This document shows positions 1 to 63,774 of a DNA stretch of 64,000 nt, piece by piece (position 1 is the stretch's first letter; each line of letters begins with the position of its first letter). The notes under the pieces were generated by a model. That model did not search any database, had not been told where the DNA came from, and saw only the letters and a list, made by a program, of their open reading frames with translations. The position numbers were made by a program, and so were the translations under genes. The stretch is from Candidatus Micrarchaeota archaeon. Lineage in GTDB: Archaea; Micrarchaeota; Micrarchaeia; Norongarragalinales; Norongarragalinaceae. The stretch spans positions 31,871 to 95,870 of the forward strand of contig JACQQD010000005.1 of NCBI GenBank assembly GCA_016207165.1, written 5' to 3'.

Positions 1-1953
1 GGCCGACACGACGCCCAAGACGATGGGGGCGACAAACGCGGACATGGTCGACAGCATGACGGTCACGTCCTGCAACAACTTCCGCAGCGACTCGTTGATT
101 TTTTCCGCGTTTCGAAGCTGCAGGGACAGCGAAATGAGGGATTTGGAGGCCACGTTCACGCCCAAGTCCACGGAGTCCACCAAGAAACGCATGCCGCTGC
201 GGATGATTTGCGAGGGGATGTAACGCAACGCTCCAAACGTTCGGTCAAAAATCGCGGTTTCAAGGGTCATGCCCAAATTCGAAATGTTCTCCACCACGCG
301 GCGGAACACTTGCCGTCCAATTTGGCTTTTGGGCATGAAAGAGACGGAGGCGCGCATGGCCTCCTCGATGGGCTTGTTCTCGCCCATGCGGCTGGCCAGG
401 ACGTACATGGCGTCTTTGAACTCGGATTCCATGGCGCGGACGTCGTCTTGGACCTTTTTTCGCGCGGCGTACTTGCCCAAGAAAAAGACGGAGATGGCCA
501 CCGAGACGCCCATGAGGAATCCAAACAACGTGAATTGGCCGATGAAGAGCCCGAATTGAAGCGCCGCAAAGCGGAGGTGGGGAATGGATTGCACTTCCGT
601 GGCCAACGCCTCGTTTCTTCGGACTCGCTCGTTTTGAGGCGCCGCCAGCACGGCGAGGTTGTCCAGCAATTCCGACTGCCGCTCGGCGGGAGTGACTAAG
701 TACGTGGGAATGGCGCCCAGGGTGCCGGTGATCTGGAACGGATCCGGTTGCGCACCGCCGGAAGGCGGGTTGACCAAACGCATGGCCGGCAAGTACAACG
801 CGGAATTGAACGCGTCCTGGGTGGCGCCGATGTCCGTATAGTAACCCAGGCCGACGCCGCCGACAATCAGAAGCAAGGCGAAGAAACGGAACGGCAGAGT
901 CATGCCCATCACCCGCACGGACCCCTTGGGCGGCAGGCCGGGAAAGTTTTCCGGAATCTTGGGCGGCGTGCTGGTGGGCGGCTTGTTGGAAATGATGCTT
1001 TTTCCGAACACGAAGACCATGAGCGGAATGAGCAGGTTGTACATGACGAACAAAAATTCGGCTTTGGCGATGTCCGCGTTGTTGGCCAGGCTGGAACCAA
1101 TGGGCAACAGAATCGCCATCAACAAGGGCAGCAGAATGCCGAAGTAGTACAGGTAGACGGTGGGTTGCTGGAGTTTGCGGGCGTACAAATCCATTTTTTC
1201 CTTGCTTCCCTCCAAAACGTCTTGGCCGGCCTTGTCAAGCAACGCGAGCCGGCGCTCGGCGTTGGCTTCCAGGACCGAGGCGCGGATCATCATCAACGCG
1301 TGCTTGAAGTCCTCGTTGTAGGAACCCCACCGGTACGCCAACTCGTCGAGGCCCTCTTCCACGGATTCGTAGCGGCCCAACTGGACGTCCCACACGATTT
1401 TCTTGAGGTCTTCCGCGATCTTGCCGCGTCCGTGGGAGGCCGCGAACTCCACGGCTTTTTCCAGGTTGGGCGTCAACCGCATGCTCATGGTCAAATAGTT
1501 GACGATTTCCGGCACGTACGCCAGCGCCAGAATTTTTTCCCGCTCAACCAGGGAAAGGGGTTGCTTCTTGTAGACGTACGACGCCAGGATGGGCAACAGC
1601 AAGAACACGCCGGAAATACCGGCCTGGAACATGAATGGCAGCGAGGAAAAAACGAAGATGACCGCCGCCAGCGCCAAGCCGACCAGCATGCCGGTGCTTT
1701 GGATGCCGCGCGCCACGGCGTAGTACTCTTCCGCGGACACGTCGTAGCCCAGAAACGCAAATGCCTCCGCCTCGTCGTCGGTGAACTTGGCTCCCCGCCC
1801 CGAAGACCTGAAGAGTTTGGCGAACCGCTTCGTGAACGTGACAAAGCCGGGGATTGGCGGCGGCTTGTAGGCGTCCTCTTGTATGTCGACGTACGGTTGG
1901 GAGTACAAGGACTCGGGCTTGGAGTCTTTCTTTTTGTTGGGCCGGGCCGCCAT
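1..1953 (-). CDS. FlaJ/PilC/TadC-like polytopic membrane platform protein of a type IV pilus/archaellum-type assembly system; 3' end runs off the window
   Basis: Absent from the ORF track because it has no stop in the window. My own minus-strand translation from ATG (cat at 1951-1953) stays open to position 1 (MAARPNKKKDSKPESLYSQPYVDIQ...). It shows two soluble helical segments, each followed by hydrophobic helices, and lies downstream of the FlaI-like ATPase. Confidence 0.6.
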   Translation of the reverse strand, partial: MAARPNKKKDSKPESLYSQPYVDIQEDAYKPPPIPGFVTFTKRFAKLFRSSGRGAKFTDDEAEAFAFLGYDVSAEEYYAVARGIQSTGMLVGLALAAVIFVFSSLPFMFQAGISGVFLLLPILASYVYKKQPLSLVEREKILALAYVPEIVNYLTMSMRLTPNLEKAVEFAASHGRGKIAEDLKKIVWDVQLGRYESVEEGLDELAYRWGSYNEDFKHALMMIRASVLEANAERRLALLDKAGQDVLEGSKEKMDLYARKLQQPTVYLYYFGILLPLLMAILLPIGSSLANNADIAKAEFLFVMYNLLIPLMVFVFGKSIISNKPPTSTPPKIPENFPGLPPKGSVRVMGMTLPFRFFALLLIVGGVGLGYYTDIGATQDAFNSALYLPAMRLVNPPSGGAQPDPFQITGTLGAIPTYLVTPAERQSELLDNLAVLAAPQNERVRRNEALATEVQSIPHLRFAALQFGLFIGQFTLFGFLMGVSVAISVFFLGKYAARKKVQDDVRAMESEFKDAMYVLASRMGENKPIEEAMRASVSFMPKSQIGRQVFRRVVENISNLGMTLETAIFDRTFGALRYIPSQIIRSGMRFLVDSVDLGVNVASKSLISLSLQLRNAEKINESLRKLLQDVTVMLSTMSAFVAPIVLGVVSA

Positions 1954-12900: not shown

Positions 12901-15900
12901 AGTCCGTCACCGAAAAAATAACGGTTTCCAGTTTAATTGACGTCAAAAGCAAGCTCTCCTCCACCATTTCTTGTAGCGACGAAAACGACGAGAAAGCATC
13001 AGCTCCCTTCACCGTCTCTCCCAAAGCGCTGACTCTTAAAGACACGGCCACCGTGGACTTGACGGCCAAGAAGACCACGTTCAAAGGCCGATGCGACGTC
13101 GTGTTCACCGCCAAAGCCAACAACGACAACATCGCCGCCGCCATTGTGGCGGTTCAAGTCGACTTGAAGGGCCCGCCCAAACCCGAAGAACTCTGTCCCC
13201 AAACCGCCCGCTGCCTGCCGCCATCCGACGGAAGAGAACTGCGTTGCACGGCGTCACGCCTTTTGTGCGACGATGAAACGCTGTCTTGCTTCCAATGCAA
13301 CCTGGGTCCCCAAACCATTCCCTCCCAAATCAGTTTGAGCGTGTCGAACTTCCAAAGCGACGACGTGAAAACCTTTGCCGTCGCGCTGGAAGACCAACCC
13401 GAGGAATGCCGAGTGGAAGGCTTCAAAAACAATCCCGCCCTCTCGCCCTACGGCCCAAGCAACCCCTACAGTCAAAACCCGTTCCAGCAATACCAAAACC
13501 CGTACTACTCACCCTACCAATCCACCAACTTCAACTACTGGAATTACCAACCCAACGGCTACCAACACTACCCAACGAATCCGTTTGACGTGGCCACCCC
13601 CGAAGAGCGCCAAGGCGACTTCCAATCCCTCCTCTCCCAACTCTCGCCCTATTGCCAACGCTTTTTGCACCAATACACGCCCTACAACGCGTACCAGAAC
13701 TACTACGGCACCAACTACCAAGACCCCTGGAACACGCAAGGCTCACCCTACCAATCCCAGTACCAGTATCCCCAAACCTCACAATACCAGTACTCGCAAA
13801 ACCGGCCCACCGTCTCGGTGACGGCCACCTGCACGCGCACCGAAATCGTGGTATCCGCCCAGTACACCGGCGGCGACCAACAATTTGGCGCCGGCCTTGG
13901 CGGCCAACAACGCGGCATCTTGCTGGTGCGCGCCGGCGGACAAACCAAGCAAGTTCCCGTCACCGTCCAAGTCCAAACCCCCTCCCAACCCGGATTCTTC
14001 CCGCAAGGCTATCCCACCAGCCAAATCCCACCCCAATGCCTGTACGAACTCCAGCAACTCCAACAAAAACAGCAAACCCAGGAAGAGGGTCTTGACGCCT
14101 CCGGATTGCCGGACGCCATCGACGTCTACTACAACAAGTACACCGGAAAAGGCGGGTGGGAGCGCGAACTCAAGCCACCCCAGAACGCGCAAGACCTCCA
14201 ACGCACCCAGCCGACGGGTTCCAAAGCCCGCGTGACAGTAGGGTATACCGGCAACAAGCTACGCGTGGACGTGCAATGCCCAGTTGACAAGGAAGGAGCC
14301 GTGGATTGCGGCGGAACCGCGGAATTCCAAGCCACCTGGCGCATCGGCCAAGTGCAGCAAACCCAGAAGAAACGCACCATCCGCTTCCTGGAAGACCCCT
14401 TCAGCCCGGCTGTCCTCCAACTCGTGGTGGGCCAAACCGGAAAAGACGCCGCGCAATACAGCGTGCAAGCCAACACCGACTTCAGCAAAGCCAAATGCCA
14501 AGGCGTTTCCGGCGTGACGTGCTCCGGCGACTCCATCACCGCTACAACTTCAACCGCAATCAACAAAGACCTGGAAATCTCGGGCACCGACGACTTCGCC
14601 ATCCGCTTCATCCCCGTCCGCGCCTCCACCATCCAGAACCGCGTCGACATCAATTTGGAAGACAAACAAAGTGACGCCGTCACCATCGCTTTTCAACCCA
14701 AACTCTTAGTCGAACCCACGTGCGAACCCGACGAAAAACTCAAAACCGTTCTGACCATCGAGAAATGCACGAAAGACGGCGTGGTTTTGAAAGCCGCGCG
14801 CCCCCCAAGCACTGAACCCGTCAGCGGCACCATCAAATTCAGTTTCGCCGACAGCGTTCGGGCGACCACCGACAACCCGCCCTCCATTACGGTTGTTGTG
14901 ACGCGGACGGAACCCAAGCGTCCAACCATTAACAGCGTGGAACCCCGCATCGCCGGCCAGGAAAGCACCATCGTCTACACGTTCCCCGACGGCTCGGACG
15001 CCGAAAAAAGCAAGATCACCGTCACCCTGAAAAAAACCGATGGAACCGACGCCGGCACCAAGGAATTCAAGAAAGCCGACGGATTGGCGCAAAGCGGGTC
15101 CATCAAGTACACGCCGCAAGTCGTGGGCACCTTGAACGTGCAGGCCGTCACGGAAATCAACGGAAAAGAAGTCAAATCCGACGTTTTCCCCGCCGAAATC
15201 ACCGTCAAAGAACAAGCGCAAACCACGGACACGACGACGCCCGGCAAGTCCACGGACTCCGGAATTTTGTCCAACTTGCAAGTCAGCAAGCCCAGCGGGC
15301 CAGTCCCAATGACGATCACCGCCACGTTTGCCGGCGAGAAAACGACCTGGAAGAAATACGTGTTAAGCGTGCAAGCCGATGCGTCCAACAAAATCACGCC
15401 GTTTGAAAGCCAAACCAAGGACGTCGACTTTAGTGGTACCACGTTCACGCTGAAGCTTTACCCCAACACGCCGGCGATAACTTCTGGCGCCTACGACGAA
15501 ATCAAGACGCTACTTGAAAAACACGGCAAGGCCACCTTCACGCTGGAGGCGTTGGACGCCAGCAATAAGGTAATCGGGAAAAGTTCCATCGAGAAGACGG
15601 CAGCAGACCTCGGCTTTACAGCCAGCACGGCCCCGACAAGCCCCAGCGCGCCGGGAACGACGACCGGAGCGTACTTCGTCGCCGCGAGCCTGGACGCGTC
15701 CCAGCATGCAGTGGTGAGCGGCTCCGAATCGGTGGAACAAAGAATCACGATGCGATTTAACAAGGAGGCGCTGGACAAGCTCAACAGCCCGGGGTTGAAG
15801 TTTTCCATTCACTATTCGGAAGACCTCGAAGCCACAGACGACGTCATCGGATCCAAGGCATTGGCATTTGAAACCAGCGTCCTGCCGTTGACGAAAGCCA

Positions 15901-16760
15901 AGGGCACGGGCGCCACGCGAATCATATCGTATGCGTTTCAGTTTAACGGCTTTAGGTGGCCGAACGGTAAACCTGCGATGGGCAAAACAGGTTCAGGCAA
16001 ATACTACGTAAAAATTACCCTCGTTTCAGAAGGAAAAACCGTAGAAGAATTCGAAGGCGTCGACAAAACGAGCTTGCAGTTCACTATTGCCAAGCAATTG
16101 GCTCTGGATGCGACCTCGCAAATCCTTGAGAAAAACCCAGTCGGATACCCGCCGGGATCCTACATCGTATTGTTGACAAAGAAAGAATTGTCCAGTGGCT
16201 TGGGTCCACCCGTAACACTTGAATTTGGTGATGGAGCGACCAAAAAAACGCTGGCTTTGCATTACCTATACTACCGGCAAGCACACGTCTCAATTTTCAG
16301 CGGTGAAGGAACAGATTCGCAAATTGCATGCGGGTATTACTGGCTTGGGCGGGGCAGTGACATGCGGTTGGAAACGAACTGGGGCAGTTCAATACCCGCA
16401 ACAACGGCCGCGACGCTAACAGGAATCGGTGTGACCGGAGCCGGTGTTCTGCACGTAACAGGAATTGCAGGCGCCGCGACGGCCGGGACTGGATTCGCAT
16501 TGGGAAGCATCCCGACCATTGCAGCACTGATTCCAGGTCCAGGATGGGCCGCAATTGCAATAGGAGGCGTAGTTGCCGGCGGAGTGGTAGCCTATAATTA
16601 CTTCAAGTCGGATACGGTCACCTGTGGCAACGCGGGACTCAAAGTGACACTCAAGCTGGCGACGTTCCCACCCGGAGCTACATACGAAACGGGCTGGAAA
16701 TGGGGCCGAGGATACGAAAATGCGCGAGTGGTCCTAATCGTGTCTCCAGTCACCTCGTAA
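9906..16760 (+). CDS. giant (2284 aa) membrane-anchored surface/adhesin-like protein with repeated beta-sandwich (carboxypeptidase-regulatory-like) modules
   Basis: Single long ORF. It has an N-terminal TM helix (LLVPLLVVVIAAGLLFYAV) and recurring modules of the type 'V.V.d..G.p...A.V......tD..G...f.v'. A Q/N/Y/P-rich insert and a near-C-terminal PGW+TM+K segment are also present. Confidence 0.85.
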   Translation: MADLKEQYEAWMTSLEEKGIPQPRLLVPLLVVVIAAGLLFYAVPNLFTPQSTVTFTVQNEEGQAVPNAAVELTANTETKTSQTDALGKVSFTVPADQRLRVKVTHSKYEEYINNQFSYTQSQVRLQAKFAAAEQSYTVQVVSDQGSPLQDALVVFSLDDGTSRIQTTDALGQAQINVNLPNHISIKVTKEGYKTEQESVAASDQSPRREVTLRKIQDEKPQTRTVTQLVRVEDQNGNAVDDVRVTLLDETTQIAFDTAYTDAFGQSRFDDVDASKRFTVSVVDDRERFSAYATPFAYTASNSEAITVRLTAVQREKQLQITVKDDKANSVADATVRVYDRAKKHFISSKATDSAGKAVFQLEAESAYVTVYSEGFLPEVFFAKNTDEKTVTLKSAEGATVQVEVTVQKQLDPQPNADVQLFSSDGFPLGVPEQATGTDGIATFQIPRKNQGFYAEAALGLDLGRSDIAVASNDAELFIHLESPKATLKVNVRDAGTKQKTSQAVVRLVDSTTKAECTTTNGSCTLNVPTDVEFRVLVEHPQYLPYQSALQFIPAGTPNQDHDVALYPKALTDGAAVSFQGFFTSEGQRVHETGNAQRLEARFAVTLPVAKPEDAARFTVWVGQNDVDQNNAGILSVDGPDSFYTGTTPLQACNPSENLAEDLGLAQWAVFDFPNGFSGTQQVILDVFVKPDAKASDDVVLEYRLHGIRNNLPVTVPLDAEKLQSLLGGTVTDADFCGAKTQTQKLPIAKDVLTCDENLCQKAVFETADGTRLTNAPEITLGQTFTLDLAFVGLQSGVAQVTVDAPESVDLLSLQPLTPSTNANNSELATNRLTLPLDAAAGEKAELQLKAKAVRATPFAELLVTVQDVDGFETEIRKNVLVSGTNRFSVQTNPEELEAGLQQLLRVTVKDQLQRPIEDAVVTLYECDGVPLNGQELEITENQNGVYTQRMEPSSLGIIGVRVQHIEFKTFDECILPVTATDFLEAEPESLTLTGDTKTESVTEKITVSSLIDVKSKLSSTISCSDENDEKASAPFTVSPKALTLKDTATVDLTAKKTTFKGRCDVVFTAKANNDNIAAAIVAVQVDLKGPPKPEELCPQTARCLPPSDGRELRCTASRLLCDDETLSCFQCNLGPQTIPSQISLSVSNFQSDDVKTFAVALEDQPEECRVEGFKNNPALSPYGPSNPYSQNPFQQYQNPYYSPYQSTNFNYWNYQPNGYQHYPTNPFDVATPEERQGDFQSLLSQLSPYCQRFLHQYTPYNAYQNYYGTNYQDPWNTQGSPYQSQYQYPQTSQYQYSQNRPTVSVTATCTRTEIVVSAQYTGGDQQFGAGLGGQQRGILLVRAGGQTKQVPVTVQVQTPSQPGFFPQGYPTSQIPPQCLYELQQLQQKQQTQEEGLDASGLPDAIDVYYNKYTGKGGWERELKPPQNAQDLQRTQPTGSKARVTVGYTGNKLRVDVQCPVDKEGAVDCGGTAEFQATWRIGQVQQTQKKRTIRFLEDPFSPAVLQLVVGQTGKDAAQYSVQANTDFSKAKCQGVSGVTCSGDSITATTSTAINKDLEISGTDDFAIRFIPVRASTIQNRVDINLEDKQSDAVTIAFQPKLLVEPTCEPDEKLKTVLTIEKCTKDGVVLKAARPPSTEPVSGTIKFSFADSVRATTDNPPSITVVVTRTEPKRPTINSVEPRIAGQESTIVYTFPDGSDAEKSKITVTLKKTDGTDAGTKEFKKADGLAQSGSIKYTPQVVGTLNVQAVTEINGKEVKSDVFPAEITVKEQAQTTDTTTPGKSTDSGILSNLQVSKPSGPVPMTITATFAGEKTTWKKYVLSVQADASNKITPFESQTKDVDFSGTTFTLKLYPNTPAITSGAYDEIKTLLEKHGKATFTLEALDASNKVIGKSSIEKTAADLGFTASTAPTSPSAPGTTTGAYFVAASLDASQHAVVSGSESVEQRITMRFNKEALDKLNSPGLKFSIHYSEDLEATDDVIGSKALAFETSVLPLTKAKGTGATRIISYAFQFNGFRWPNGKPAMGKTGSGKYYVKITLVSEGKTVEEFEGVDKTSLQFTIAKQLALDATSQILEKNPVGYPPGSYIVLLTKKELSSGLGPPVTLEFGDGATKKTLALHYLYYRQAHVSIFSGEGTDSQIACGYYWLGRGSDMRLETNWGSSIPATTAATLTGIGVTGAGVLHVTGIAGAATAGTGFALGSIPTIAALIPGPGWAAIAIGGVVAGGVVAYNYFKSDTVTCGNAGLKVTLKLATFPPGATYETGWKWGRGYENARVVLIVSPVTS

Positions 16761-21943: not shown

Positions 21944-23344
21944 ATGGTGGGAGTCATTGAAGGAGTTTTGATCGTTGGAGCCCTGGGCTTGGACGTGTAC
22001 GCGTACACGAAAATGAAGGAAGCGGAAAACGCCGCCGATTCCGCGACCCGGGACCGCGAACGCGCTCGATTCAAGACCCACGTCACCGAAACCACCACCA
22101 TCACCACGGCGACGCCCGCCGCGGCCGGCGCGACGGCTTCAGAGACCCGCGAAGAACAGCCCAGCCACCCCGCCGACTGGAAGCCAGTCACGTATGAAGG
22201 CTACGCGGAACCCGTCGCCCACGGCGAGGACGTCAAGGACGAACTGCGTTTTATGCGGGACGAAATGAAGACGGAGTACAAGAAGATTCACGACCGCCTC
22301 GACGTCATCGACGAACGCCTCCACGAAGAGGATTCCAAGATTTCCGTCATGGAAACCAAGTTTACGCATTTGGACTCGGAAGTCGAGAAAGTCCGCCACG
22401 GCTCCGAGAACATGGAAATCGAACTGCCGGAAGAACAAATCGACGCCATCGTGGAAAAGAAATTGTCGACGAAGAACGAGCGGCTCAACAAGAAAGTCAA
22501 GGACCAGGAAAAACAACTCACACAACTGCAGACGAAATTGGACAACGCCTTGATTGCCGCCCCCGACGCCGTATCGATCAAAAAGGACTTGCGCTCGGAA
22601 TTCGTGCCGCTGTTGTCAGAACCCAAGAAACTCGTTGAAGACTACCGGACGAAAAGCGACAAGAAAATCAAGGAACTGGACGAGAAAATCGCTTCCCAGA
22701 AAGACGCGACCCTCCAGGAAGTCAGCGTGCACGTCAAGAAGCTGGGTTCCTCGGCGCGCGACGCCAAGCGCATCAAAGACCAAGGCAAGAAGCTGGCCGA
22801 AGTGGAAGCCAAACTGGACTCGCACCTCATCGCCGCCCCGGACGCCGTATTGATCAAGAAAGACTTGCGCGAGGAATTCTACCCGGTCCTAAAAGAACCC
22901 AAGGCGGCGCTGGAAGAACACCAGAAAGAAACCGCGCAACGCCTCAAGGACGTCAACAAGCGCATCACCGAAGCCAAGGAAACCGCCTTGGAGGAAACCA
23001 AGACGCGCGTGAGCAAAGGCGAGTTTGAACGCTCGATTTCCGCGCTGCGCCCCGGCCTCAAGAGGAAAGCCACCATCAAGGCCAAAACGGCTTCAAAGCC
23101 CAAGAAAGCCGCCAAGGCGAAAACCGTCAAGAAAGTTAAGCCCGCGAAAACAGTGGCCTCCAAAACCAGGAAGGCATCCAAGCCCTCCAAGAAAGCCGCC
23201 GCGAAAAAGCCGGCAAAAAGCGTGAAGAAAACGCCTTCCAAGCGCACGGCCAAGTCGGCCAAAGGCGAAGTCACCGTGACGACCACGGTGCCGCGCGGCG
23301 TGGACGTCAGCACGGAAGTCGTGTCCGCCAAGAGCAAGAGTTAG
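21944..23344 (+). CDS. membrane-anchored coiled-coil protein with an internal duplication and a lysine/alanine-rich basic tail
   Basis: 466 aa with an N-terminal hydrophobic helix, heptad-like charged repeats and a KAKTASKPKKAAKAKTVKKVKPAK... tail. It ends in TAG. Confidence 0.75.
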   Translation: MVGVIEGVLIVGALGLDVYAYTKMKEAENAADSATRDRERARFKTHVTETTTITTATPAAAGATASETREEQPSHPADWKPVTYEGYAEPVAHGEDVKDELRFMRDEMKTEYKKIHDRLDVIDERLHEEDSKISVMETKFTHLDSEVEKVRHGSENMEIELPEEQIDAIVEKKLSTKNERLNKKVKDQEKQLTQLQTKLDNALIAAPDAVSIKKDLRSEFVPLLSEPKKLVEDYRTKSDKKIKELDEKIASQKDATLQEVSVHVKKLGSSARDAKRIKDQGKKLAEVEAKLDSHLIAAPDAVLIKKDLREEFYPVLKEPKAALEEHQKETAQRLKDVNKRITEAKETALEETKTRVSKGEFERSISALRPGLKRKATIKAKTASKPKKAAKAKTVKKVKPAKTVASKTRKASKPSKKAAAKKPAKSVKKTPSKRTAKSAKGEVTVTTTVPRGVDVSTEVVSAKSKS

Positions 23345-30831: not shown

Positions 30832-32190
30832 CTAAATGATTTTTTCGCCGGAGTCCTTCTTGACCAAATGAATGACGTTCACGGGGCAGGACTGGGCGGC
30901 TTCCATGTTCGTGTCGAAATCTTGGTCCTGGATGTCCAACTCTTCCGTTTCGTCATCCATCTTCTTTCCGCCGACGACATCGCTTTTCCCGTCGTCATTC
31001 ATCGTCCAGAAATCCGGGGAAACGCCCGCGCATGCCGCGCAGTTGTGCACGATGCCGGCCGAGGTGCAGTAATCCTCGATTCCAGCGACTTCCAGGTTGT
31101 AGACGACTCCGGAATAGGGCGTTTCAATGACGTCCATTATAGGAAGCAAAAGCCGCGATTCGGTTTGAATCGAGTTAATTTTTAGTGCGGAAGCGGTTTT
31201 AGCGGTTTGGCCGTTGACCAACGCCTCCAGGTGGGCTACGTACGGATTGCATACTTTTGGTTTGAACGAAGGCCTGTGGCCCGGGCGCGGTTTGGATTGC
31301 TCCATGGAGCTGACGATGTCCTGACGGAGCAAAAGCAATTTCATTTGTTCGGCAAGCCGGCGGGAAATGGTGCTGTATTGCGCACGGTTAGAACCAATCC
31401 AGCCGTCCCCACGCCAAAGACCCTTAATCAAGTCCCTTTGAACCCATGGCTCCGCCAACATCATTTCAGCAGGAACGTGCTTGTTTTGCGCTCCATGACC
31501 AAACCATTCAACAAAGGCTTTGGCAATCAACGAAGAGTTTGCCAAGACAGTAATGGTGTTCTTTCGGGGTATTCGCCGAATCGTTGCCTTCAATCCAAAC
31601 ACGTGGTCCAAGAGTTGCGCCGTATCCTGGGCCAATTCCATTTCCTTGCTCCCAAAAGTGAAAAGAATCTGCCGACAATACACGGTTTCCGGTTTTCCAA
31701 TGGTATTTCCTTCCGACACGTAGTAACCCGCCAACCGGAAGAATTCAGGCGTAAACGCTACCGTTTTCTGTTTCAACCCGTTTCTGGAGGCGGTTGAAAA
31801 CGTCAAGAAGTTCACGGACGCCGACCTAACGGGCTTGGGATAAGTCACGTAATCGAGTTTCTTGAGGTTGCCTGCCTCCGTCCACTCAAATTCAAACGGC
31901 GCCCGGTTATGCTCGTATTTGGACTTCCGGCGGACAACGAGCACTTTGTGTTCTTCGGTGATGTGAATGGAACCCATGGAACGGATTTTCAGTTCAAAAA
32001 TGCGGCCCACGTGTTTGTGGGCCATGACGCCGGTGACAGCTTGATACGATCCGTTCGAGGTAAGCACCAAATCTCCTACCTTGATTTCCGAAATGGGTTT
32101 GGCGCCATATGGACCAACGATTAGCGTATCGGGAGTCAAGCACCCAATGCAGTTTGGCCGGTCGTGTTGAATCTTGTAGCCCATAGGCAT
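30832..32190 (-). CDS. small [4Fe-4S]/[3Fe-4S] ferredoxin (Pyrococcus type) interrupted by an intein
   Basis: The exteins MPMGYKIQHDRPNCIG + CAACAGVSPDFWTMNDDGK...AAQSCPVNVIHL rebuild a CxxCxxC...CP ferredoxin. Confidence 0.85.
   Translation of the reverse strand: MPMGYKIQHDRPNCIGCLTPDTLIVGPYGAKPISEIKVGDLVLTSNGSYQAVTGVMAHKHVGRIFELKIRSMGSIHITEEHKVLVVRRKSKYEHNRAPFEFEWTEAGNLKKLDYVTYPKPVRSASVNFLTFSTASRNGLKQKTVAFTPEFFRLAGYYVSEGNTIGKPETVYCRQILFTFGSKEMELAQDTAQLLDHVFGLKATIRRIPRKNTITVLANSSLIAKAFVEWFGHGAQNKHVPAEMMLAEPWVQRDLIKGLWRGDGWIGSNRAQYSTISRRLAEQMKLLLLRQDIVSSMEQSKPRPGHRPSFKPKVCNPYVAHLEALVNGQTAKTASALKINSIQTESRLLLPIMDVIETPYSGVVYNLEVAGIEDYCTSAGIVHNCAACAGVSPDFWTMNDDGKSDVVGGKKMDDETEELDIQDQDFDTNMEAAQSCPVNVIHLVKKDSGEKII
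31042..32142 (-). mobile_element. 367-aa intein with a LAGLIDADG homing-endonuclease domain
   Basis: Block A is CLTPDTLIV, block B is SIHITEEHKVLV, the LAGLIDADG motifs are FFRLAGYYVSEGN and LIKGLWRGDGWIG, and the terminal block VVYNLEVAG...SAGIVHN is followed by a +1 Cys. Confidence 0.8.
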
Positions 32191-53035: not shown

Positions 53036-53332
53036 GGGTGGGGCGGTGCACGGCTGTCGGTAGCCTGGGTTCAAAGCCTGGGTGGCTGAGGAAGCTCCGC
53101 ACACTATTTCGACTGGAAACAGTGGTCAAAAACCCGTGCGCGGCAACGCGCCAACTCTAAGGGTTGATTTCCGGAACAGAAACGATATCGTCGGGTTTCG
53201 CAGGATGAAGTCCGCTGACGTTGAAGCCCAGTACGAGTGAAACGCGCCGGGAAATGGGGAGTGCAAGGCCTTTGAGCCGCTAAGTCGAATGCCGTGGTCA
53301 ACAGAATGCGGGCTATGGCCGCCCCCACCCGT
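53036..53332 (+). ncRNA. rnpB: RNase P RNA (archaeal type A-like)
   Basis: The termini pair (GGGTGGGGCGG...CCGCCCCCACCC). Conserved regions are GAGGAAGCTCCGCAC (CR-I/P4), AACAGAAACGA, GAGTGAAAC and ACAGAATGCGGGCTAT (CR-V). A T-tract follows. Confidence 0.8.
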
Positions 53333-58027: not shown

Positions 58028-58197
58028 TGGGGGAGGAGGGATTTGAACCCTCGAAGGCACATAACCACAGGATGGCCTAACCGCTTCTTTCTTTCCTCTG
58101 AAGCCCTTCTTTCTTTGCATGAAAGATTTCTTTCTTCGGGAAGAAAGAAATGTTTCCTTAAGTCCTGCCCCTTTGGCCAGGCTCGGGACACTCCCCC
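58028..58197 (-). tRNA. tRNA-Leu(UAA), class II, with an 83-nt intron at 37/38 (58074-58156)
   Basis: Hand-folded. The acceptor is GGGGGAG/CTCCCCC, the anticodon arm is CAGGA-CTTAAG|intron|A-TCCTG, the T arm is GAGGG-TTCAAAT-CCCTC and the discriminator is A. No CCA is encoded. Confidence 0.8.
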
Positions 58198-59783: not shown

Positions 59784-60152
59784 TTAAGCTTTTTGCCGGG
59801 CCAGGCGTTCCAAAAATTGACCGGCTTTGTTTTGTTCCCTCGGCACCCACTTCAAGGACACGTTTTTGGATTCGTAGAGTGCTTTGGCTTTTTCGAACAA
59901 GGGTTTCAGGTTTTCCGCCTTGACTTGGTATTGCCCGGAAAGCTGGCGTTCAACGAGTTGGCTGTCGCCGACGAGTTCGTCTCCATCGTTTGCGTTTTCC
60001 AGGGCTTCAATGAGGGCGGCGTACTCCATCTCGTTGTTCGATTTTTTCTCATGCAGGCGAACGATGATGGGCGGGCGTTTTTTATCTTCAAACACGACGG
60101 TGTAGGCCGACGTCTGGCCGTTCCAGCCGGAGCCGTCGAAAAAGGTTTTCAT
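59784..60152 (-). CDS. rnhA: ribonuclease HI
   Basis: 122 aa with FFDGSGWNG, NNEMEYAALIEAL, GDSQLV and WVPREQNKAG. Confidence 0.8.
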   Translation of the reverse strand: MKTFFDGSGWNGQTSAYTVVFEDKKRPPIIVRLHEKKSNNEMEYAALIEALENANDGDELVGDSQLVERQLSGQYQVKAENLKPLFEKAKALYESKNVSLKWVPREQNKAGQFLERLARQKA

Positions 60153-60181: not shown

Positions 60182-60253
60182 AGCCCCGGACGAGGATCGA
60201 ACTCGTGACCCCCTGTTTACGAAACAGGTGCTCTACCGCTGAGCTACCGAGGC
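60182..60253 (-). tRNA. tRNA-Thr(CGU), no intron
   Basis: Hand-folded as GCCTCGG TA GCTC AGCGGTA GAGC A CCTGT TTCGTAA ACAGG GGGTC ACGAG TTCGATC CTCGT CCGGGGC T. Confidence 0.85.
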
Positions 60254-60362
60254 ACTGCGTTGTTTTTGTGGTCCGATAATGTTTTTGAATCTTCGTTTTT
60301 CTTTGAAGCGCCTAACTTTCTTTTCGGAAAAGAAAGTTGGGCCCGCCTGAGCTACCGAGGCA
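60254..60362. mobile_element. miniature hairpin insertion (copy b) ending in a 16-nt duplicate of the tRNA-Thr(CGU) 5' end
   Basis: The direct repeat ctgagctaccgaggca occurs at 60239-60254 and 60347-60362. The conserved module gcgcctaactttcttttcggaaaagaaagttgggcccgc lies at 60308-60346. Confidence 0.5.
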
Positions 60363-60543
60363 AGCCCCGGGGGGACACCTCCACTTCGTTCCGGTTTCGC
60401 CCTGGCGCGCAACAGTTGGAAGCGATGGTCGACAAGCGGCCATCGCAAGGCTCAACCGCCTCGCCCCCTTCCCTTTGAAGTGGTGGAAGGGTGAACTGGC
60501 AATGAAAGCATTTTTTACTGGCATTTGACCATTTAAAGGAGTT

Positions 60544-61128
60544 ATGTTCGACGTGTCGGTTTGGAAGAAACTTTCGCGCGGCCCCCAAGTCATTCTGTTG
60601 AAAGACGCCGCCGTCATTTCCGCTTTTACGGGTTTGCAATCCGGCGACCACGTCGTGGACGCGGGAGCAGGAAGCGGGTTTTTGGCCTGCTATTTGGGTT
60701 CCATCGTGGCGCCCGGCGGACGCGCTTATTCGTACGAGAAGCGCCCCGAATTTGCCAAACTGGCTTGCCGCAACGTGGAAAAAGCGGGTTTGCAAGACGT
60801 AGTCGAAATCAAGGAAAAGGACGTGTTGGAAGGAATCGACGAAAAAGGCGTGGACTTGGTGGCATTGGATTTGGCGGATTCCCCAAATGCTCTTTCGCAG
60901 GCCTTTGCCGCGCTTAAACCCCGGGGTTTTTGCGTGGGGTACTTGCCGCACGCCGAACAAGTTCAATCCTTCGTCGCCGAGGGCTTGCGCGTGGGTTTCC
61001 TGCAGAACCAGACGTTGGAAGTCATCCACCGTGAAATGCTGGTGCGAAAACAAGGTTTTCGGCCGGAAAACTCCGGTTTGCTGCATACGGCCTACTTGAG
61101 TTTCCTGCGAAAGCCGCTTAAGACGTGA
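60544..61128 (+). CDS. trmI: tRNA (adenine-N1)-methyltransferase TrmI/Gcd14-like, short form
   Basis: 194 aa with GPQVILLKDAAVI and HVVDAGAGSGFLACYL...GRAYSYEKRPEFA. Confidence 0.75.
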   Translation: MFDVSVWKKLSRGPQVILLKDAAVISAFTGLQSGDHVVDAGAGSGFLACYLGSIVAPGGRAYSYEKRPEFAKLACRNVEKAGLQDVVEIKEKDVLEGIDEKGVDLVALDLADSPNALSQAFAALKPRGFCVGYLPHAEQVQSFVAEGLRVGFLQNQTLEVIHREMLVRKQGFRPENSGLLHTAYLSFLRKPLKT

Positions 61129-61261
61129 TTCGCGCGCAATTCCTTTCTTTTGGCGCGCCTAGCTTTCCGCACAAACGCCGTTGCGTTTGTGGGGCACAGC
61201 AAAACCAATTGGTTTTGCCCGTGTCTTTGGAAAGAAAAGGTGGGCTGCGAAAGCCGCTTAA
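61122..61261. mobile_element. miniature hairpin insertion (copy c) with a 17-bp direct repeat at the trmI 3' end
   Basis: ctgcgaaagccgcttaa occurs at 61105-61121 and 61245-61261. The conserved module at 61155-61244 is split by a nested double hairpin at 61167-61225. Confidence 0.5.
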
Positions 61262-61283
61262 ATCCTGAAAACGTCTTTCTTTC

Positions 61284-62408
61284 ATGCGGCCCTGGTTTGC
61301 AGTCACGTTTTTCGCCTTGTTGGCCTTGTTTTCCGTGCCGTTGATTGCTTCGGCCGCCGACTTGGCCTGCCAGAAAAACGAGGTCTGCATTTTCCTGGGC
61401 TTGGTGCCGGCGCGCATCTTGGAATCCTTGCCGGATGGTTCTGTCACGCCTCCGGCTTCGCCTGGATCTTCTGGCTTGATTTGTCCGGTGACGGTGTCCT
61501 CCGGCCAGATTGGGCGAGGCGTTTCAGGAGCCAGCGTGCACCCCTTAAGCGGCGAGATTCGGCCTCACGACGGACTGGATTTGAAGATTGCATCCGGGAC
61601 GCCGGTCAAGGCCGCGGCGGCCGGTAAAGTCGTCGTCCCCGATTTTGACACCGACGGTTACGGCGCGTGGATCATTTTGGACCACGGCAATGGCGTCGAG
61701 ACGCGGTACGCCCACTTGACTCCCGGCGCGTTCAAGGTGCGCTCCGGCGACACGGTTTCGCAAGGCGATGTTCTCGCGTTGTCCGGCGACTCCGGGGGCT
61801 CTACGGGCCCCCACCTGCATTTCGAGGTTCGGCGCAACGACCAGCCTACGCACGAACCGGAAGCGTTGTGCCGGACGGGGGCGTCTTCCACCTCCACCCA
61901 GGCATTCAACCCGTCTTCCGTGAACTTGGTGTCCGTTGCCCAATGCGCGCAGCAAGCCGAATCCGCGTGCCCGTCTACGGGTTCCAAAGACTTTGCCGGC
62001 CGGTCCTGGAAAACCGCGGACTACCGATGCGTCACGCGCGTGGCAAGCCAGACGTCGGGCATTCCGGAGAACTTGTTGTTGGCGCAAATGCGGCAGGAAA
62101 GCGGGTACCAGCAATTCGTGGGTTCCTCCGCTGGAGCAAAAAGTTACATGCAGCTTATTGATGAGACGGCGGCGGGTTTGGGAGTAGGCGCTGACAAGAT
62201 TTACGATCCATATCACAACATTTGCGCGGGCACGCGGTATTTCGCCGGCCAACTCAAGGCGTTCGGTTCTGTCGAGTGCGCACTGGCCGCGTACAACGCC
62301 GGCCCCGGCAACGTCCAAGGCAGCAACCCGTCCACCTGCGTGCCGAATTTTGAGGAAACGAGAAACTACGTGACCAACATCGTGTCGGACTGGCGGGGAA
62401 CGGCTTAA
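61284..62408 (+). CDS. secreted bifunctional murein hydrolase: M23 (LytM) peptidase plus lytic transglycosylase (SLT) domain
   Basis: 374 aa with a signal peptide. The M23 motifs are PHDGLDL and GPHLHFEV. The SLT motifs are AQMRQESGYQ, YMQLID and AAYNAGPGNV. Confidence 0.85.
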   Translation: MRPWFAVTFFALLALFSVPLIASAADLACQKNEVCIFLGLVPARILESLPDGSVTPPASPGSSGLICPVTVSSGQIGRGVSGASVHPLSGEIRPHDGLDLKIASGTPVKAAAAGKVVVPDFDTDGYGAWIILDHGNGVETRYAHLTPGAFKVRSGDTVSQGDVLALSGDSGGSTGPHLHFEVRRNDQPTHEPEALCRTGASSTSTQAFNPSSVNLVSVAQCAQQAESACPSTGSKDFAGRSWKTADYRCVTRVASQTSGIPENLLLAQMRQESGYQQFVGSSAGAKSYMQLIDETAAGLGVGADKIYDPYHNICAGTRYFAGQLKAFGSVECALAAYNAGPGNVQGSNPSTCVPNFEETRNYVTNIVSDWRGTA

Positions 62409-62710
62409 CCGATTTTCTTCTGGTAAAACAAAATGCCGATGAAGACGCGGCCGATGCGTCCGGCTTGCCAAAGCAGTCCCTCGTCCGGCGACACGGCGGT
62501 GGAGCCGATGGCCTCCAACGCCAGGTAAACGCCGATGAGCGGCCCGTATTTTTTCGGGATGTGGCCGAACAACAAAAACAAGCCGATGACCAGGCGCGCG
62601 ACGCGGCCGACTTGGAAAAGCAGAATAAGGTCCGTAGAGTAGACGATGCTCAAGAGCGCGTCGACGACGAGCCAAACTCCGGCGACCAATGCAACGGTCT
62701 TTTCTTTCAT
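62405..62710 (-). CDS. small polytopic membrane protein
   Basis: 101 aa with three or four hydrophobic helices. Confidence 0.5.
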   Translation of the reverse strand: MKEKTVALVAGVWLVVDALLSIVYSTDLILLFQVGRVARLVIGLFLLFGHIPKKYGPLIGVYLALEAIGSTAVSPDEGLLWQAGRIGRVFIGILFYQKKIG

Positions 62711-63027
62711 GCCATCAGCGCGTCGATTTTGGCGGCCAAAATGAAATCGTTTTCGTGCAGGCCCCCGATTTTGTGCGTGTACAATTCCAGGCGCACCTCG
62801 TTCCAGTGGATTTCAATGTCGGGGTGGTGGCCTTGCTGTTCCGCGATGTCCGCCACGGCGTTGACAAACGCCATGGCGTCTTTGAAGTTTTTGAATTTGA
62901 TTGTGCGGGCGATTCTGTTTCCTTCCAGCTTCCAGTTCGGCACTTCCCGGAGGTAGAACTCGGCTTTTTCTTTGGGCAGCGGAGGAATGCCTCCGCGGCA
63001 GGGAACGCAGAACTGGTCTTTAAGCAT
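62707..63027 (-). CDS. phhB: pterin-4-alpha-carbinolamine dehydratase
   Basis: 106 aa with FKNFKDAMAFVNAVADIAEQQGHHPD...HENDFILAAKID. Confidence 0.85.
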   Translation of the reverse strand: MLKDQFCVPCRGGIPPLPKEKAEFYLREVPNWKLEGNRIARTIKFKNFKDAMAFVNAVADIAEQQGHHPDIEIHWNEVRLELYTHKIGGLHENDFILAAKIDALMA

Positions 63028-63354
63028 TTATTTCCCGCGTTGTTCTGTCCATTCAGGGTGCATGCGCAGGATGCCCACGATTCCAGATTGTATCAATGTT
63101 TTGTCCGTGACGGGTTCGTGAAGGAGTGCGACGCCAAGCGTGGATTTCAAGTCTTTGCCTGATACTTCGTCACTTCGAACGGGAAGGAATTCGCCTCTCC
63201 AAGCCGTGGTCGTGTACGTAATTTGCCGGCGATTTTTCAACCCGCTTCGGACTTTGTCGTTTGCTTTGGGCCAATCCACTACATAGACTTTTCCGCCTCG
63301 CTGAAGGTGGCTTAACACGGTTTGAGCTCCTTGAGCCAATCGTCGTTCTTCCAT
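63028..63354 (-). CDS. hypothetical protein
   Basis: 108 aa from the ATG at 63354. The longer track ORF would run into the tRNA gene. Confidence 0.45.
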   Translation of the reverse strand: MEERRLAQGAQTVLSHLQRGGKVYVVDWPKANDKVRSGLKNRRQITYTTTAWRGEFLPVRSDEVSGKDLKSTLGVALLHEPVTDKTLIQSGIVGILRMHPEWTEQRGK

Positions 63355-63409
63355 GAAATCACCGATTGGATGTAACGCAGCGGTAAAGAAATAGTTTTTG
63401 TTGCTAGAA

Positions 63410-63514
63410 AGCCTCCGGCGCGAATTGAACGCGCGACCTCGTCCTTTGCGGCAAACGATTCGGTTGAATCGCAAGTTACCATGGACGCGCTCTACCAGGC
63501 TGAGCTACGGAGGC
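63410..63514 (-). tRNA. tRNA-Thr(GGU) with a ~30-nt intron at the canonical 37/38 position
   Basis: Hand-folded. The acceptor is GCCTCCG/CGGAGGC, the D arm is GCTC-AGCCTGGTA-GAGC, the anticodon arm is CGTCC-ATGGTA|intron|A-GGACG and the T arm is GCGCG-TTCAATT-CGCGC. Confidence 0.8.
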
Positions 63515-63644
63515 AACGGGTTTTGTTATGGATCCTGCGGGTTTTCAAACCTTTTCACTCCGCCGGGTTTTCTTTTGGGGCGCCTAGCTTTTCTTTCGGA
63601 AAAGAAAAGGCGGGCGCGTCTGTACCCGGCTGAGCTACGGAGGC
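63515..63644. mobile_element. miniature hairpin insertion (copy d) ending in a 17-nt duplicate of the tRNA-Thr(GGU) 5' end
   Basis: The direct repeat ggctgagctacggaggc occurs at 63498-63514 and 63628-63644. The conserved module gcgcctagcttttctttcggaaaagaaaaggcgggcgc lies at 63580-63617. Confidence 0.5.
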
Positions 63645-63774
63645 GGATTTGGAAGAAAGAATTGCGCAAGGCCTTCTAAAGGGTTTTCTTTTTCGCTTGG
63701 CGTGAACGCTTGAAAAAAAAGGTCTTGGTTTTTGTCCCGGAAAAAAAAGAAGCCCGGGGGAAAAGAAAAAAAAA

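Follow-up and report, generated by a model that had tools for sequence, protein, structure and literature searches.

The DNA analysed here, a 64-kb stretch of contig JACQQD010000005.1 (positions 31,871 to 95,870; the window in what follows), comes from a groundwater archaeon of the Candidatus Micrarchaeota, tiny archaea of the DPANN group, and has a G+C content of 56%. Its region between 58 and 64 kb carries three tRNA genes, all on the minus strand, and between them an RNase H-like gene, trmI, an M23/SLT peptidase gene, a small open reading frame (ORF) and a pterin-4a dehydratase gene (Table 1). We have focussed on three inserts of this region, labelled (b), (c) and (d), each of 90-125 nucleotides (nt), devoid of any functional gene and flanked by a direct repeat. 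Two of them, (b) and (d), lie at the 5' ends of the two tRNA-Thr genes, and (c) lies at the 3' end of trmI. All three have the same orientation and contain the same hairpin, which defines a Micrarchaeota-specific family built on a module of ~50 nt with an A-rich tail. This family is very probably mobile or unstable, and related to tRNA introns.

Table 1. Features of the tRNA region and its inserts, with the RNase P RNA gene (window positions).
Feature	Position	Strand	Evidence and remarks
Archaeal RNase P RNA	53038-53328		
tRNA-Leu(UAA), 83-nt intron 58074-58156 at canonical position	58028-58197	-	L027:3110-3286 orthologue, in-silico splice
tRNA-Thr(CGU), complete, intron-less	60182-60253	-	ARAGORN; Rfam tRNA 66.8 bits
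(b) inner repeat	60239-60254	-	First 15 nt of tRNA-Thr(CGU) plus 1 upstream nt
(b) spacer	60255-60292	-	BRE/TATA promoter-like GAAGA-TTCAAAAA, ~60281-60288, at -35..-28 from tRNA +1 (BRE, transcription factor B recognition element)
(b) hairpin module	60293-60347	-	GCCCAAC-UUUCUUUU..AAAAGAAAG-UUAGGCGC plus A-rich tail; covariance model R1 57 bits, E 7.6e-15; nhmmer and inverted-repeat support
(b) outer repeat	60347-60362	-	Displaced copy of tRNA-Thr(CGU) nt -1..15, exact 16 nt
trmI, tRNA m1A57/58 methyltransferase	60544-61128	+	Pfam GCD14; homologues
Insertion (c)	61122-61244	-	nhmmer and partial covariance-model matches (19.6 bits)
(c) outer repeat, ancestral trmI 3' end (..CTTAAATCCTGA)	61245-61261	+	Exact 17 nt; empty-site comparison
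M23/SLT peptidase gene	61284-62408		
tRNA-Thr(GGU), 31-nt canonical intron	63410-63514	-	Intron-enabled ARAGORN, manual splice, Rfam 49.9 bits (relaxed filters)
(d) inner repeat	63498-63514	-	tRNA-Thr(GGU) nt 1-17
(d) spacer	63515-63564	-	Promoter-like AAAAGG-TTTGAAA, ~63543-63549, at -35..-29
(d) hairpin module, near family consensus	63565-63620	-	Covariance model R1 67 bits, E 7.6e-18
(d) outer repeat	63620-63644	-	Exact 17 nt (63628-63644); 25 nt with 2 mismatches
Native TATA-like box TTTAGAA, GAAAAAGAAAACCC before it	63674-63680	-	-36..-30 from outer fragment of (d)

Hairpin inserts flanked by direct repeats

The three direct-repeat pairs that the initial annotation had located are exact and lie where it had placed them (16, 17 and 17 nt for (b), (c) and (d), respectively). 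The only other local repeat of at least 16 nt in the 64 kb is a low-complexity coding one, at 13508/13742. These four repeats compare with a mean of 0.02 per window in first-order Markov simulations, and a chance origin is ruled out by the simulations together with recurrence in other genomes. The coding repeat (13508-13523 / 13742-13757) stems from a giant ORF of 2284 amino acids (9906-16760, plus strand) with a low-complexity stretch rich in Q, Y, N and P, and a lysine-rich repeat protein (21944-23344) yields a repeat of 14 nt.

It also holds that the repeats of (b) and (d) are the 5' ends of the adjoining tRNA-Thr genes, and that each insert leaves a displaced 5' fragment with a complete tRNA downstream of it. 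In (d) the outer copy of tRNA nt 1-17 is followed by the element-type sequence GGUACAGAC. The promoter-like motif in the spacer of (b) is also found in the corresponding spacer of a related genome (L007; sequences fetched for comparison carry L numbers throughout), and the one in the spacer of (d) is homologous to the sole promoter of the L032 orthologue. At the third site the last 24 nt of trmI consist of the inner repeat of (c) (61105-61121) plus 7 nt derived from the element, so that the protein ends in KT* and not in KS*. A T-rich tract follows 16-23 nt past the trmI stop codon. The outer repeat of (c) runs directly into the start region of the M23 peptidase gene, and this repeat includes a TATA-like CTTAAAT upstream of the ATG at 61284.

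The shared module had been recognized by its motif, and GCGCCTARCTTT is indeed present exactly three times in the window, in a single orientation and always within the long hairpin of an insert (0.66 matches are expected at up to one mismatch). Insert (c) differs in a ~60-nt extension with two extra nested hairpins in the apex of the stem. When the ends of (b), (c) and (d) were inspected by eye and by a repeat search the internal hairpin alone was found, in agreement with the reported absence of terminal inverted repeats. A covariance model of the module (R1, see below) matches the window at (d), at (b), in the tRNA-Leu intron and at (c), and besides gives one weak match (63716-63772, plus strand; 16 bits, E 0.016). 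The latter is an A/T-rich hairpin between (d) and the convergent 3' end of a thioredoxin/DsbA-like gene. It has a similar counterpart in L032 and is probably a terminator rather than a family member.

With members at Thr(CGU), Thr(GGU) and Leu(UAA), each tRNA gene of the window carries one. The 83-nt intron of tRNA-Leu(UAA) holds a diverged copy of the module (21.9 bits) and is a family member in a true-intron role inside the window, since splicing it out in silico gives tRNA-Leu(taa). This gene was missed by default ARAGORN and at the Rfam gathering threshold, and relaxing the latter gave a weak match to the tmRNA clan alone. The tRNA-Thr(GGU) gene was missed by default ARAGORN and by the fast filters of Rfam, and intron-enabled ARAGORN miscalls it Cys(gca); the call for its L032 orthologue is Thr(ggt). 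Scanning for introns by brute force, with ARAGORN at a permissive threshold, gave no discrimination. In practical terms, two of the three tRNA genes of the window escape the default finders and are therefore invisible to default annotation.

A hairpin family of the Micrarchaeota

The module is present at many other loci. An exact-pattern scan over one genome per GTDB species gave 12 matches, eight of them in Candidatus Micrarchaeota or Norongarragalinales; the four bacterial ones were partial and were discarded as chance. A stricter pattern recovered 13 contigs from metagenomes. Using nhmmer and the covariance model R1, built from 22 family copies, ~30 distinct copies were found in ~160 kb of fetched sequence. 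The consensus, given in the usual tRNA sense strand (minus in the window), is GCCCAYC-UUUUCUUUU-loop-AAAAGAAAAG-CUAGGCGC-NNC-AAAAGAAAAC, where the arms are U4CU4 and A4GA4G and the tail that follows CUAGGCGC is CCAAAAGAAAAC. The hairpin proposed in the initial annotation is borne out by covariation. Over the 22 copies 90.7% of the cells are paired and 7 of the 15 pairs have compensatory changes, a level reached by none of 500 shuffles, and shifting the 3' partners abolishes the pairing. A C·A mismatch is retained in 20 of the 22 copies.

No Rfam family matches these hairpins, even at E values up to 1, and our literature searches retrieved no account of this family, nor of intron-core copies placed at gene ends between repeats. 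A viral or plasmid carrier was also considered and rejected: none of the seven 17-mer matches in IMG/VR fits the covariance model or lies near a tRNA, and we regard them as chance.

The module as a tRNA intron

Outside the window most copies of the family are intronic in tRNA genes, where they occupy position 37/38 or lie in the T- or D-loop, and the module forms the core of tRNA introns throughout the phylum. ARAGORN places the module within introns in L010, L015, L019 and L021. Those at position 37/38 belong to tRNA-Thr(CGU) in L010 and L019 and to tRNA-Pro(UGG) in L021, and in L015 the module lies within the intron in the opposite orientation. In L004, L011 and L008 it is found in the T-loop, near position 59/60, and removing the T-loop insert of L004 in silico restores a tRNA-Leu(CAA). 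In L003 three copies occur in a single tRNA gene, one of them a D-loop intron that an inverted repeat (GGACCC..GGGTCC), and not a duplicate of the exon, closes off. Thus, for members elsewhere as well as for 58074-58156 of the window, removal of the insert restores a standard tRNA. Removal of these introns by the splicing endonuclease is expected. These findings agree with published reports on ARMAN-2 Micrarchaeota, in which 56% of the tRNA genes are reported to be disrupted, along with many non-canonical introns and a broad-specificity epsilon2 splicing endonuclease (PMC3239211). Along similar lines, tRNA introns of the Thermoproteales transpose (Fujishima et al., 2010, as summarised in PMC4090602).

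Empty and filled sites in related genomes

An exact-protein lookup of the window TrmI gave no match, and the orthologous loci were fetched through TrmI homologues that are 89-70% identical. As predicted for insertions, empty-site homologues exist for all three sites. Given that the module also occurs at other loci, this disposes of the objection, raised with the initial annotation itself, that the module might be restricted to these loci and lack empty-site homologues.

Site (c) is empty in L027 and L030, where the sequence (...CTGCGAAAGCC..TTAAATCCTGA, 15-16 nt, followed by the ATG of the peptidase) is that of the window minus the insert and one copy of the repeat. The TrmI C-termini are KT* in filled alleles and KS* in empty ones. 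L032 is filled, with an insert 91% identical over 103 nt and the same left junction as the window. Its outer repeat comprises ~64 nt of the trmI 3' end and, by our own count, has ~65% identity to its own inner copy and ~85% to the L028-type sequence. In L028 (5586-5665) and L029 the stop codon of trmI carries an insert of ~43 nt without hairpin, and after it comes an incomplete second copy of the end of the gene, AAAGCCGCTTTAAATCC, which resembles the window-type sequence and not their own; this may be a decayed insertion or a different one at the same site.

Site (b) is empty in L030 and filled in L007 (15-nt repeat) and in L027 (16 nt exact, or 23 nt with one indel). In L028 the spacer is present and the hairpin and outer copy are absent. 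Site (d) is empty in L027, filled in L030 with a 21-nt repeat, and reduced to the spacer in L032. L027 therefore has (b) filled and (d) empty and L030 the reverse, with modules of one subfamily, ~88% identical by eye, within intergenic DNA that cannot be aligned between the two. A second case is the pair L017 and L022, 99.78% identical over 7.2 kb. At the tRNA-Gln 3' end L022 has a multi-hairpin insert of 104 nt, with an 18-nt repeat, that L017 lacks. This difference is either a recent gain or a precise loss. Together, the complementary occupancy of (b) and (d) and this presence or absence in nearly identical genomes point to copying between sites.

Other gene-end copies were found at the 5' end of tRNA-His in L026 (9-nt repeat), at the 3' end of tRNA-Gln in L012, L017 and L022 (12-nt repeat), and at the 5' end and promoter of tRNA-Leu(CAA) in L004, where a 55-nt imperfect repeat abuts a bare 51-nt module. 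There are also intergenic copies without repeats (L013, L012:1068-1118). L012 has a run of N (822-964) over the stretch that holds the 104-nt insert in the near-identical L022. Three hairpin elements are stacked in succession downstream of this tRNA-Gln gene, and after two of them part of the 3' end of the tRNA is repeated.

Anatomy of the gene-end copies

The length of the repeat varies from locus to locus (9, 12, 15-17, 18, 21-25, 55 and ~64 nt). In all gene-end copies found the tail faces the intact gene and the GCCC/GGGC end lies 0-12 nt from the displaced copy. Of the two ends of the element, the GCCC one is precise and the other variable. The A-rich tail directly abuts the repeat only in one copy (L004b), the others having a spacer in between. 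On its outer side the repeat ends at tRNA +1 in window (d), L007, L027, L030 and L026, and with -1 in window (b). In L004 it lies at -41, where the native promoter has been duplicated and there is no spacer, and at the tRNA-Gln 3' ends it lies one nt past the discriminator base.

Each spacer contains AAAGG-TTTNARA at -35..-28 from the inner tRNA. On the far side, the TTTAGAA box with its preceding GAAAAAGAAAACCC is at -36..-30 from the outer fragment in L030 (d) as in window (d), and at the empty site (d) of L027 the same box is found at -39..-33, directly before the tRNA; the similar promoter of the RNase P RNA supplies a local consensus. The module tail CCAAAAGAAAAC resembles this native upstream sequence, GAAAAAGAAAACCC-TTTAGAA. 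In window (d), L027 (b) and L030 (d) the part of the outer copy next to the hairpin has GGUACAGAC or GGUAUAGAC in place of GGUAGAGC. The variants GTCTGTACC or GTCTATACC are common to these three loci, which represent two tRNA-Thr genes and three genomes, and the distal part of the outer copy matches the local isoacceptor. The spacer types disagree with the TrmI tree, the window and L007 having one type and L027 and L028 another. L030 (4598-5000), L007 (1480-1600), L027 and L032 share a conserved, structured segment, ..CCCTGCCGGGC.. within a GC-rich hairpin followed by GCTTAAAT. It lies upstream of the tRNA-Thr(CGU) gene or of the fragment displaced from it, and may be a leader or a divergent-promoter region.

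Origin of the gene-end copies

The explanation that we favour, and to which we would give an even chance, is insertion by recombination of the attachment-site (att) type across a short homology carried by the cassette, rather than duplication of a staggered cut. The cassette would combine the hairpin and its A-rich tail with a short stretch identical to the gene end and, in most copies, with a brief spacer. It would enter the gene end by a single, Campbell-type crossover in the shared stretch, which would then be present twice, and the agent could be host recombination or a recombinase supplied in trans. At the tRNA-Thr genes the native promoter would be left with a displaced 5' fragment ending in the hairpin, and the promoter-like motif that the cassette brings beyond the hairpin would be rightly spaced to transcribe the intact tRNA, with RNase P trimming yielding a normal product. 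At trmI the inner copy would preserve the frame, at the cost of one changed residue and a new stop codon, and the outer copy would preserve the start region of the next gene. The tail would act as a BRE-like sequence upstream of a promoter when directed toward a tRNA 5' end and as an oligo-T terminator after a 3' end, and the U-rich arm could halt transcripts from the orphaned native promoter. What the sequences show directly is the family, its hairpin, its membership of introns elsewhere, the filled and empty sites and the make-up of the repeats; the promoter and terminator activities, the RNAs made and the recombination step are inferred. The variant shared among outer copies, the complementary occupancy, the distribution of spacer types, the outer copy of L032 and the 9-64 nt range are a poor fit to a staggered cut and are what would be expected of such a cassette. 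The outer boundary would fall at +1 because the homology of the cassette starts where its promoter-driven tRNA copy starts, and the polarity would be constant through selection or by design.

Among the mechanisms listed in the initial annotation, an integrase-like or homology-based one thus fits best, given repeats of 9 to ~64 nt and outer bases of element or foreign type. A Cas1 or casposon-like origin is not supported, with no inverted repeats, no fixed duplication length and no Cas1 domain in the 36 window ORFs that were scanned.

Several points weigh against recombination through a carried homology. Stretches of 9-17 nt are short for general homologous recombination, and the homology step alone leaves the first colonisation of trmI, the tRNA-Gln 3' end and the tRNA-His 5' end unexplained. 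Direct repeats of 9 nt or longer are absent around the intron copies, so introns and gene-end copies may have followed different routes. The element-type outer bases could be retained ancestral states or parallel changes, and the perfect outer tRNA fragments might reflect a selection that the model does not predict. A Pfam search of 36 ORFs of the 64-kb window detected no Cas1, integrase or other recombinase, transposase or reverse-transcriptase domain, nor any other candidate enzyme; the RVT_3/RNase H match at 59784-60152 is an RNase HI-type protein and not a reverse transcriptase. A search of sequencing runs returned DNA metagenomes only, and no RNA runs with the sequence. In Logan contigs from four groundwater runs we found only assembly breaks at repeated k-mers and cross-matches to tRNAs of other organisms.

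There are three other explanations to consider. The gene-end copies could be those of a non-autonomous transposable element, inserted through widely staggered cuts or target-primed synthesis, with the repeats as target-site duplications of variable length and with survivors limited to the insertions whose duplication regenerates a gene end. At young sites the two copies of the repeat match perfectly (16, 17 and 17 nt in the window, 18 nt in L022 versus L017), the targets are of many different sequences, L004 has a bare 51-nt module directly between its 55-nt repeats, and a precise GCCC end opposite a variable one is reminiscent of mechanisms that truncate at the 5' or 3' side. We nevertheless consider it unlikely. 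There are no inverted terminal repeats, the duplications range from 9 to 64 nt, and the 36 scanned ORFs have no reverse transcriptase, Cas1 or transposase. Moreover, a random staggered cut does not explain a boundary within 1 nt of tRNA +1 at five of the six 5'-end loci, nor outer copies that share non-local bases. We know of no archaeal transposase or casposase that gives duplications over such a range. Somewhat less probable still is that no dedicated mobility is involved, the hairpin being a host regulatory or boundary element (an oligo-T terminator in one direction, a BRE-like promoter upstream element in the other) and the duplications, deletions and allele exchange around it being due to replication slippage, flap mis-processing or ordinary recombination. 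The likeness of the tail to the native promoter upstream sequence, the constant orientation relative to the intact gene, the intergenic copies without repeats in L013 and L012 and the partial states with a spacer and no hairpin (L028, L032) would all be accommodated. Conservation of a ~50-nt module across orders at unrelated sites, tRNA interiors included, would be unexpected for a terminator, however, and neither the opposite occupancy of the two tRNA-Thr genes by one subfamily nor the clean 104-nt presence or absence in 99.8% identical genomes speaks for it.

The initial annotation had also offered a reading of each tRNA-Thr gene as one with a giant D-loop intron. The outer fragment would then be the real 5' exon, transcribed from the native promoter, and the broad-specificity endonuclease would remove everything up to the matching point in the inner copy. 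We find this improbable. It does have the native promoter in front of the outer fragment on its side, as well as the position of the hairpin at most 12 nt after that fragment, since true introns of the family have their 5' splice site directly before the hairpin. The perfect conservation of the outer fragments over 15-17 nt in several lineages and the precedent of ARMAN-2, with its many non-canonical introns and epsilon2 endonuclease (PMC3239211), also favour it. For (d), the minimum free energy and centroid folds have both the acceptor stem and the D stem completed by the outer copy; for (b), the centroid fold has the acceptor stem completed in this way. Folding energies, however, do not separate the two copies: either can complete the cloverleaf, and in (d) there is a 7-bp helix between the D-loop copies and no clear 3-4-3 motif. 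Against a giant intron, the inner tRNA is complete in both cases (66.8 and 49.9 bits) and has a promoter-like motif of its own at -35..-28, L032 and L028 keep tRNA and spacer with neither hairpin nor outer fragment, and the empty sites of L030 and L027 are intron-less. The true D-loop intron of L003 has no exon duplicate, and (c) shows the same anatomy at a protein gene and on the antisense strand. None of the three inserts of the window interrupts an RNA gene from which it must be excised; they are gene-end insertions and not introns. Two further candidates were discarded. A tandem duplication of promoter and tRNA 5' end at (d) is contradicted by promoter regions that are not recognisably homologous next to an identical tRNA part, and an intron-first origin is plausible for the copies at tRNA 5' ends and cannot explain those at trmI or at the 3' end of tRNA-Gln.

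Significance

The field has yet to settle by what route introns are acquired at many positions of archaeal tRNA genes, and how such genes become split. Here one intron-core family is found in three states, as true introns, as repeat-flanked insertions at gene ends and as empty sites in close relatives. Together these make the question of intron gain testable, with defined junctions, candidate circular intermediates and predicted transcripts. They also provide a rare view, at the level of sequence, of archaeal tRNA genes gaining and losing inserts, which appear to re-wire tRNA promoters and in one case alter the C-terminus of TrmI. A bolder proposal, which we put forward as speculation and think rather doubtful, is that archaeal tRNA introns are gained through the hairpin module, as the mobile unit long looked for, a protein-less DNA cassette that spreads among tRNA genes and gene ends by recombination at short homologies or as small circles. 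If so, a module that lands inside a tRNA would survive through splicing by the broad-specificity endonuclease, and one at a gene end by bringing a duplicate of that end along with promoter-like or terminator-like sequence. The repeat-flanked copies of the window would then be snapshots of the insertion mechanism, and the displaced 5' fragments of tRNAs, each joined to its hairpin, would mark the beginning of a path to split tRNA genes.

The window contains a second type of selfish insertion, an ORF of 452 amino acids (30832-32190, minus strand) that combines intein splicing and LAGLIDADG homing-endonuclease domains, adjoining a 4Fe-4S cluster domain.

Comparison with known systems

The closest parallels are the transposed bulge-helix-bulge (BHB) tRNA introns of archaea, as in the Thermoproteales (PMC4090602), and the intron-rich tRNA genes of ARMAN-2 Micrarchaeota (PMC3239211), a lineage known for disrupted tRNA genes. 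The gain of such introns is regarded as a DNA-level event, and the mechanism of transposition in the Thermoproteales is described as unknown (PMC4090602). Unlike BHB introns, the family described here has a hairpin-plus-tail core that is conserved across orders of the Micrarchaeota and is found also at gene ends, outside the tRNA bodies, with long direct repeats and with empty and filled alleles. In addition, the three copies of the window need no splicing.

Casposons and miniature inverted-repeat transposable elements (MITEs) resemble it less. With the MITEs of Sulfolobus and with the bacterial repetitive extragenic palindromic (REP) and Correia elements it has in common that they are short, non-coding, multi-copy and structured in their core, and that insertions are polymorphic among close relatives. 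In contrast to MITEs, it has neither terminal inverted repeats nor a fixed short duplication, and it shows a strong link to tRNA genes and a constant orientation. Casposons have repeats of ~14-17 nt and tend toward the ends of tRNA and housekeeping genes. They are several kb long and encode a Cas1 casposase between inverted terminal repeats, whereas our inserts are of ~100 nt, have no coding capacity and no inverted repeats, and come with duplications of variable length and with neither Cas1 nor polymerase found.

Integrative elements of the SSV (Sulfolobus spindle-shaped virus) and pNOB8 types are similar in the reconstituted intact tRNA, in the direct repeat of its terminus at the far border of the insert, in the end of the repeat at the terminus of the tRNA and in mismatches inherited from the copy of the element. 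Such tRNA-targeting elements reconstitute the gene and displace a fragment of it, and in Caldiarchaeum a displaced 5' fragment has been described at tRNA-Thr(GGU), the same tRNA as at site (d) (PMC3293823). The present inserts differ in being 90-125 nt long and non-coding, with a hairpin that is also an intron core and with no recombinase encoded in them or seen among the 36 window ORFs scanned. Their repeats vary in sequence and length by site, with the 5' ends of tRNA-Thr, -His and -Leu, the 3' end of tRNA-Gln and the 3' end of a protein gene, trmI, in place of a shared att core. The family thus combines features of tRNA introns and of integrase-type insertions and fits the full definition of neither.

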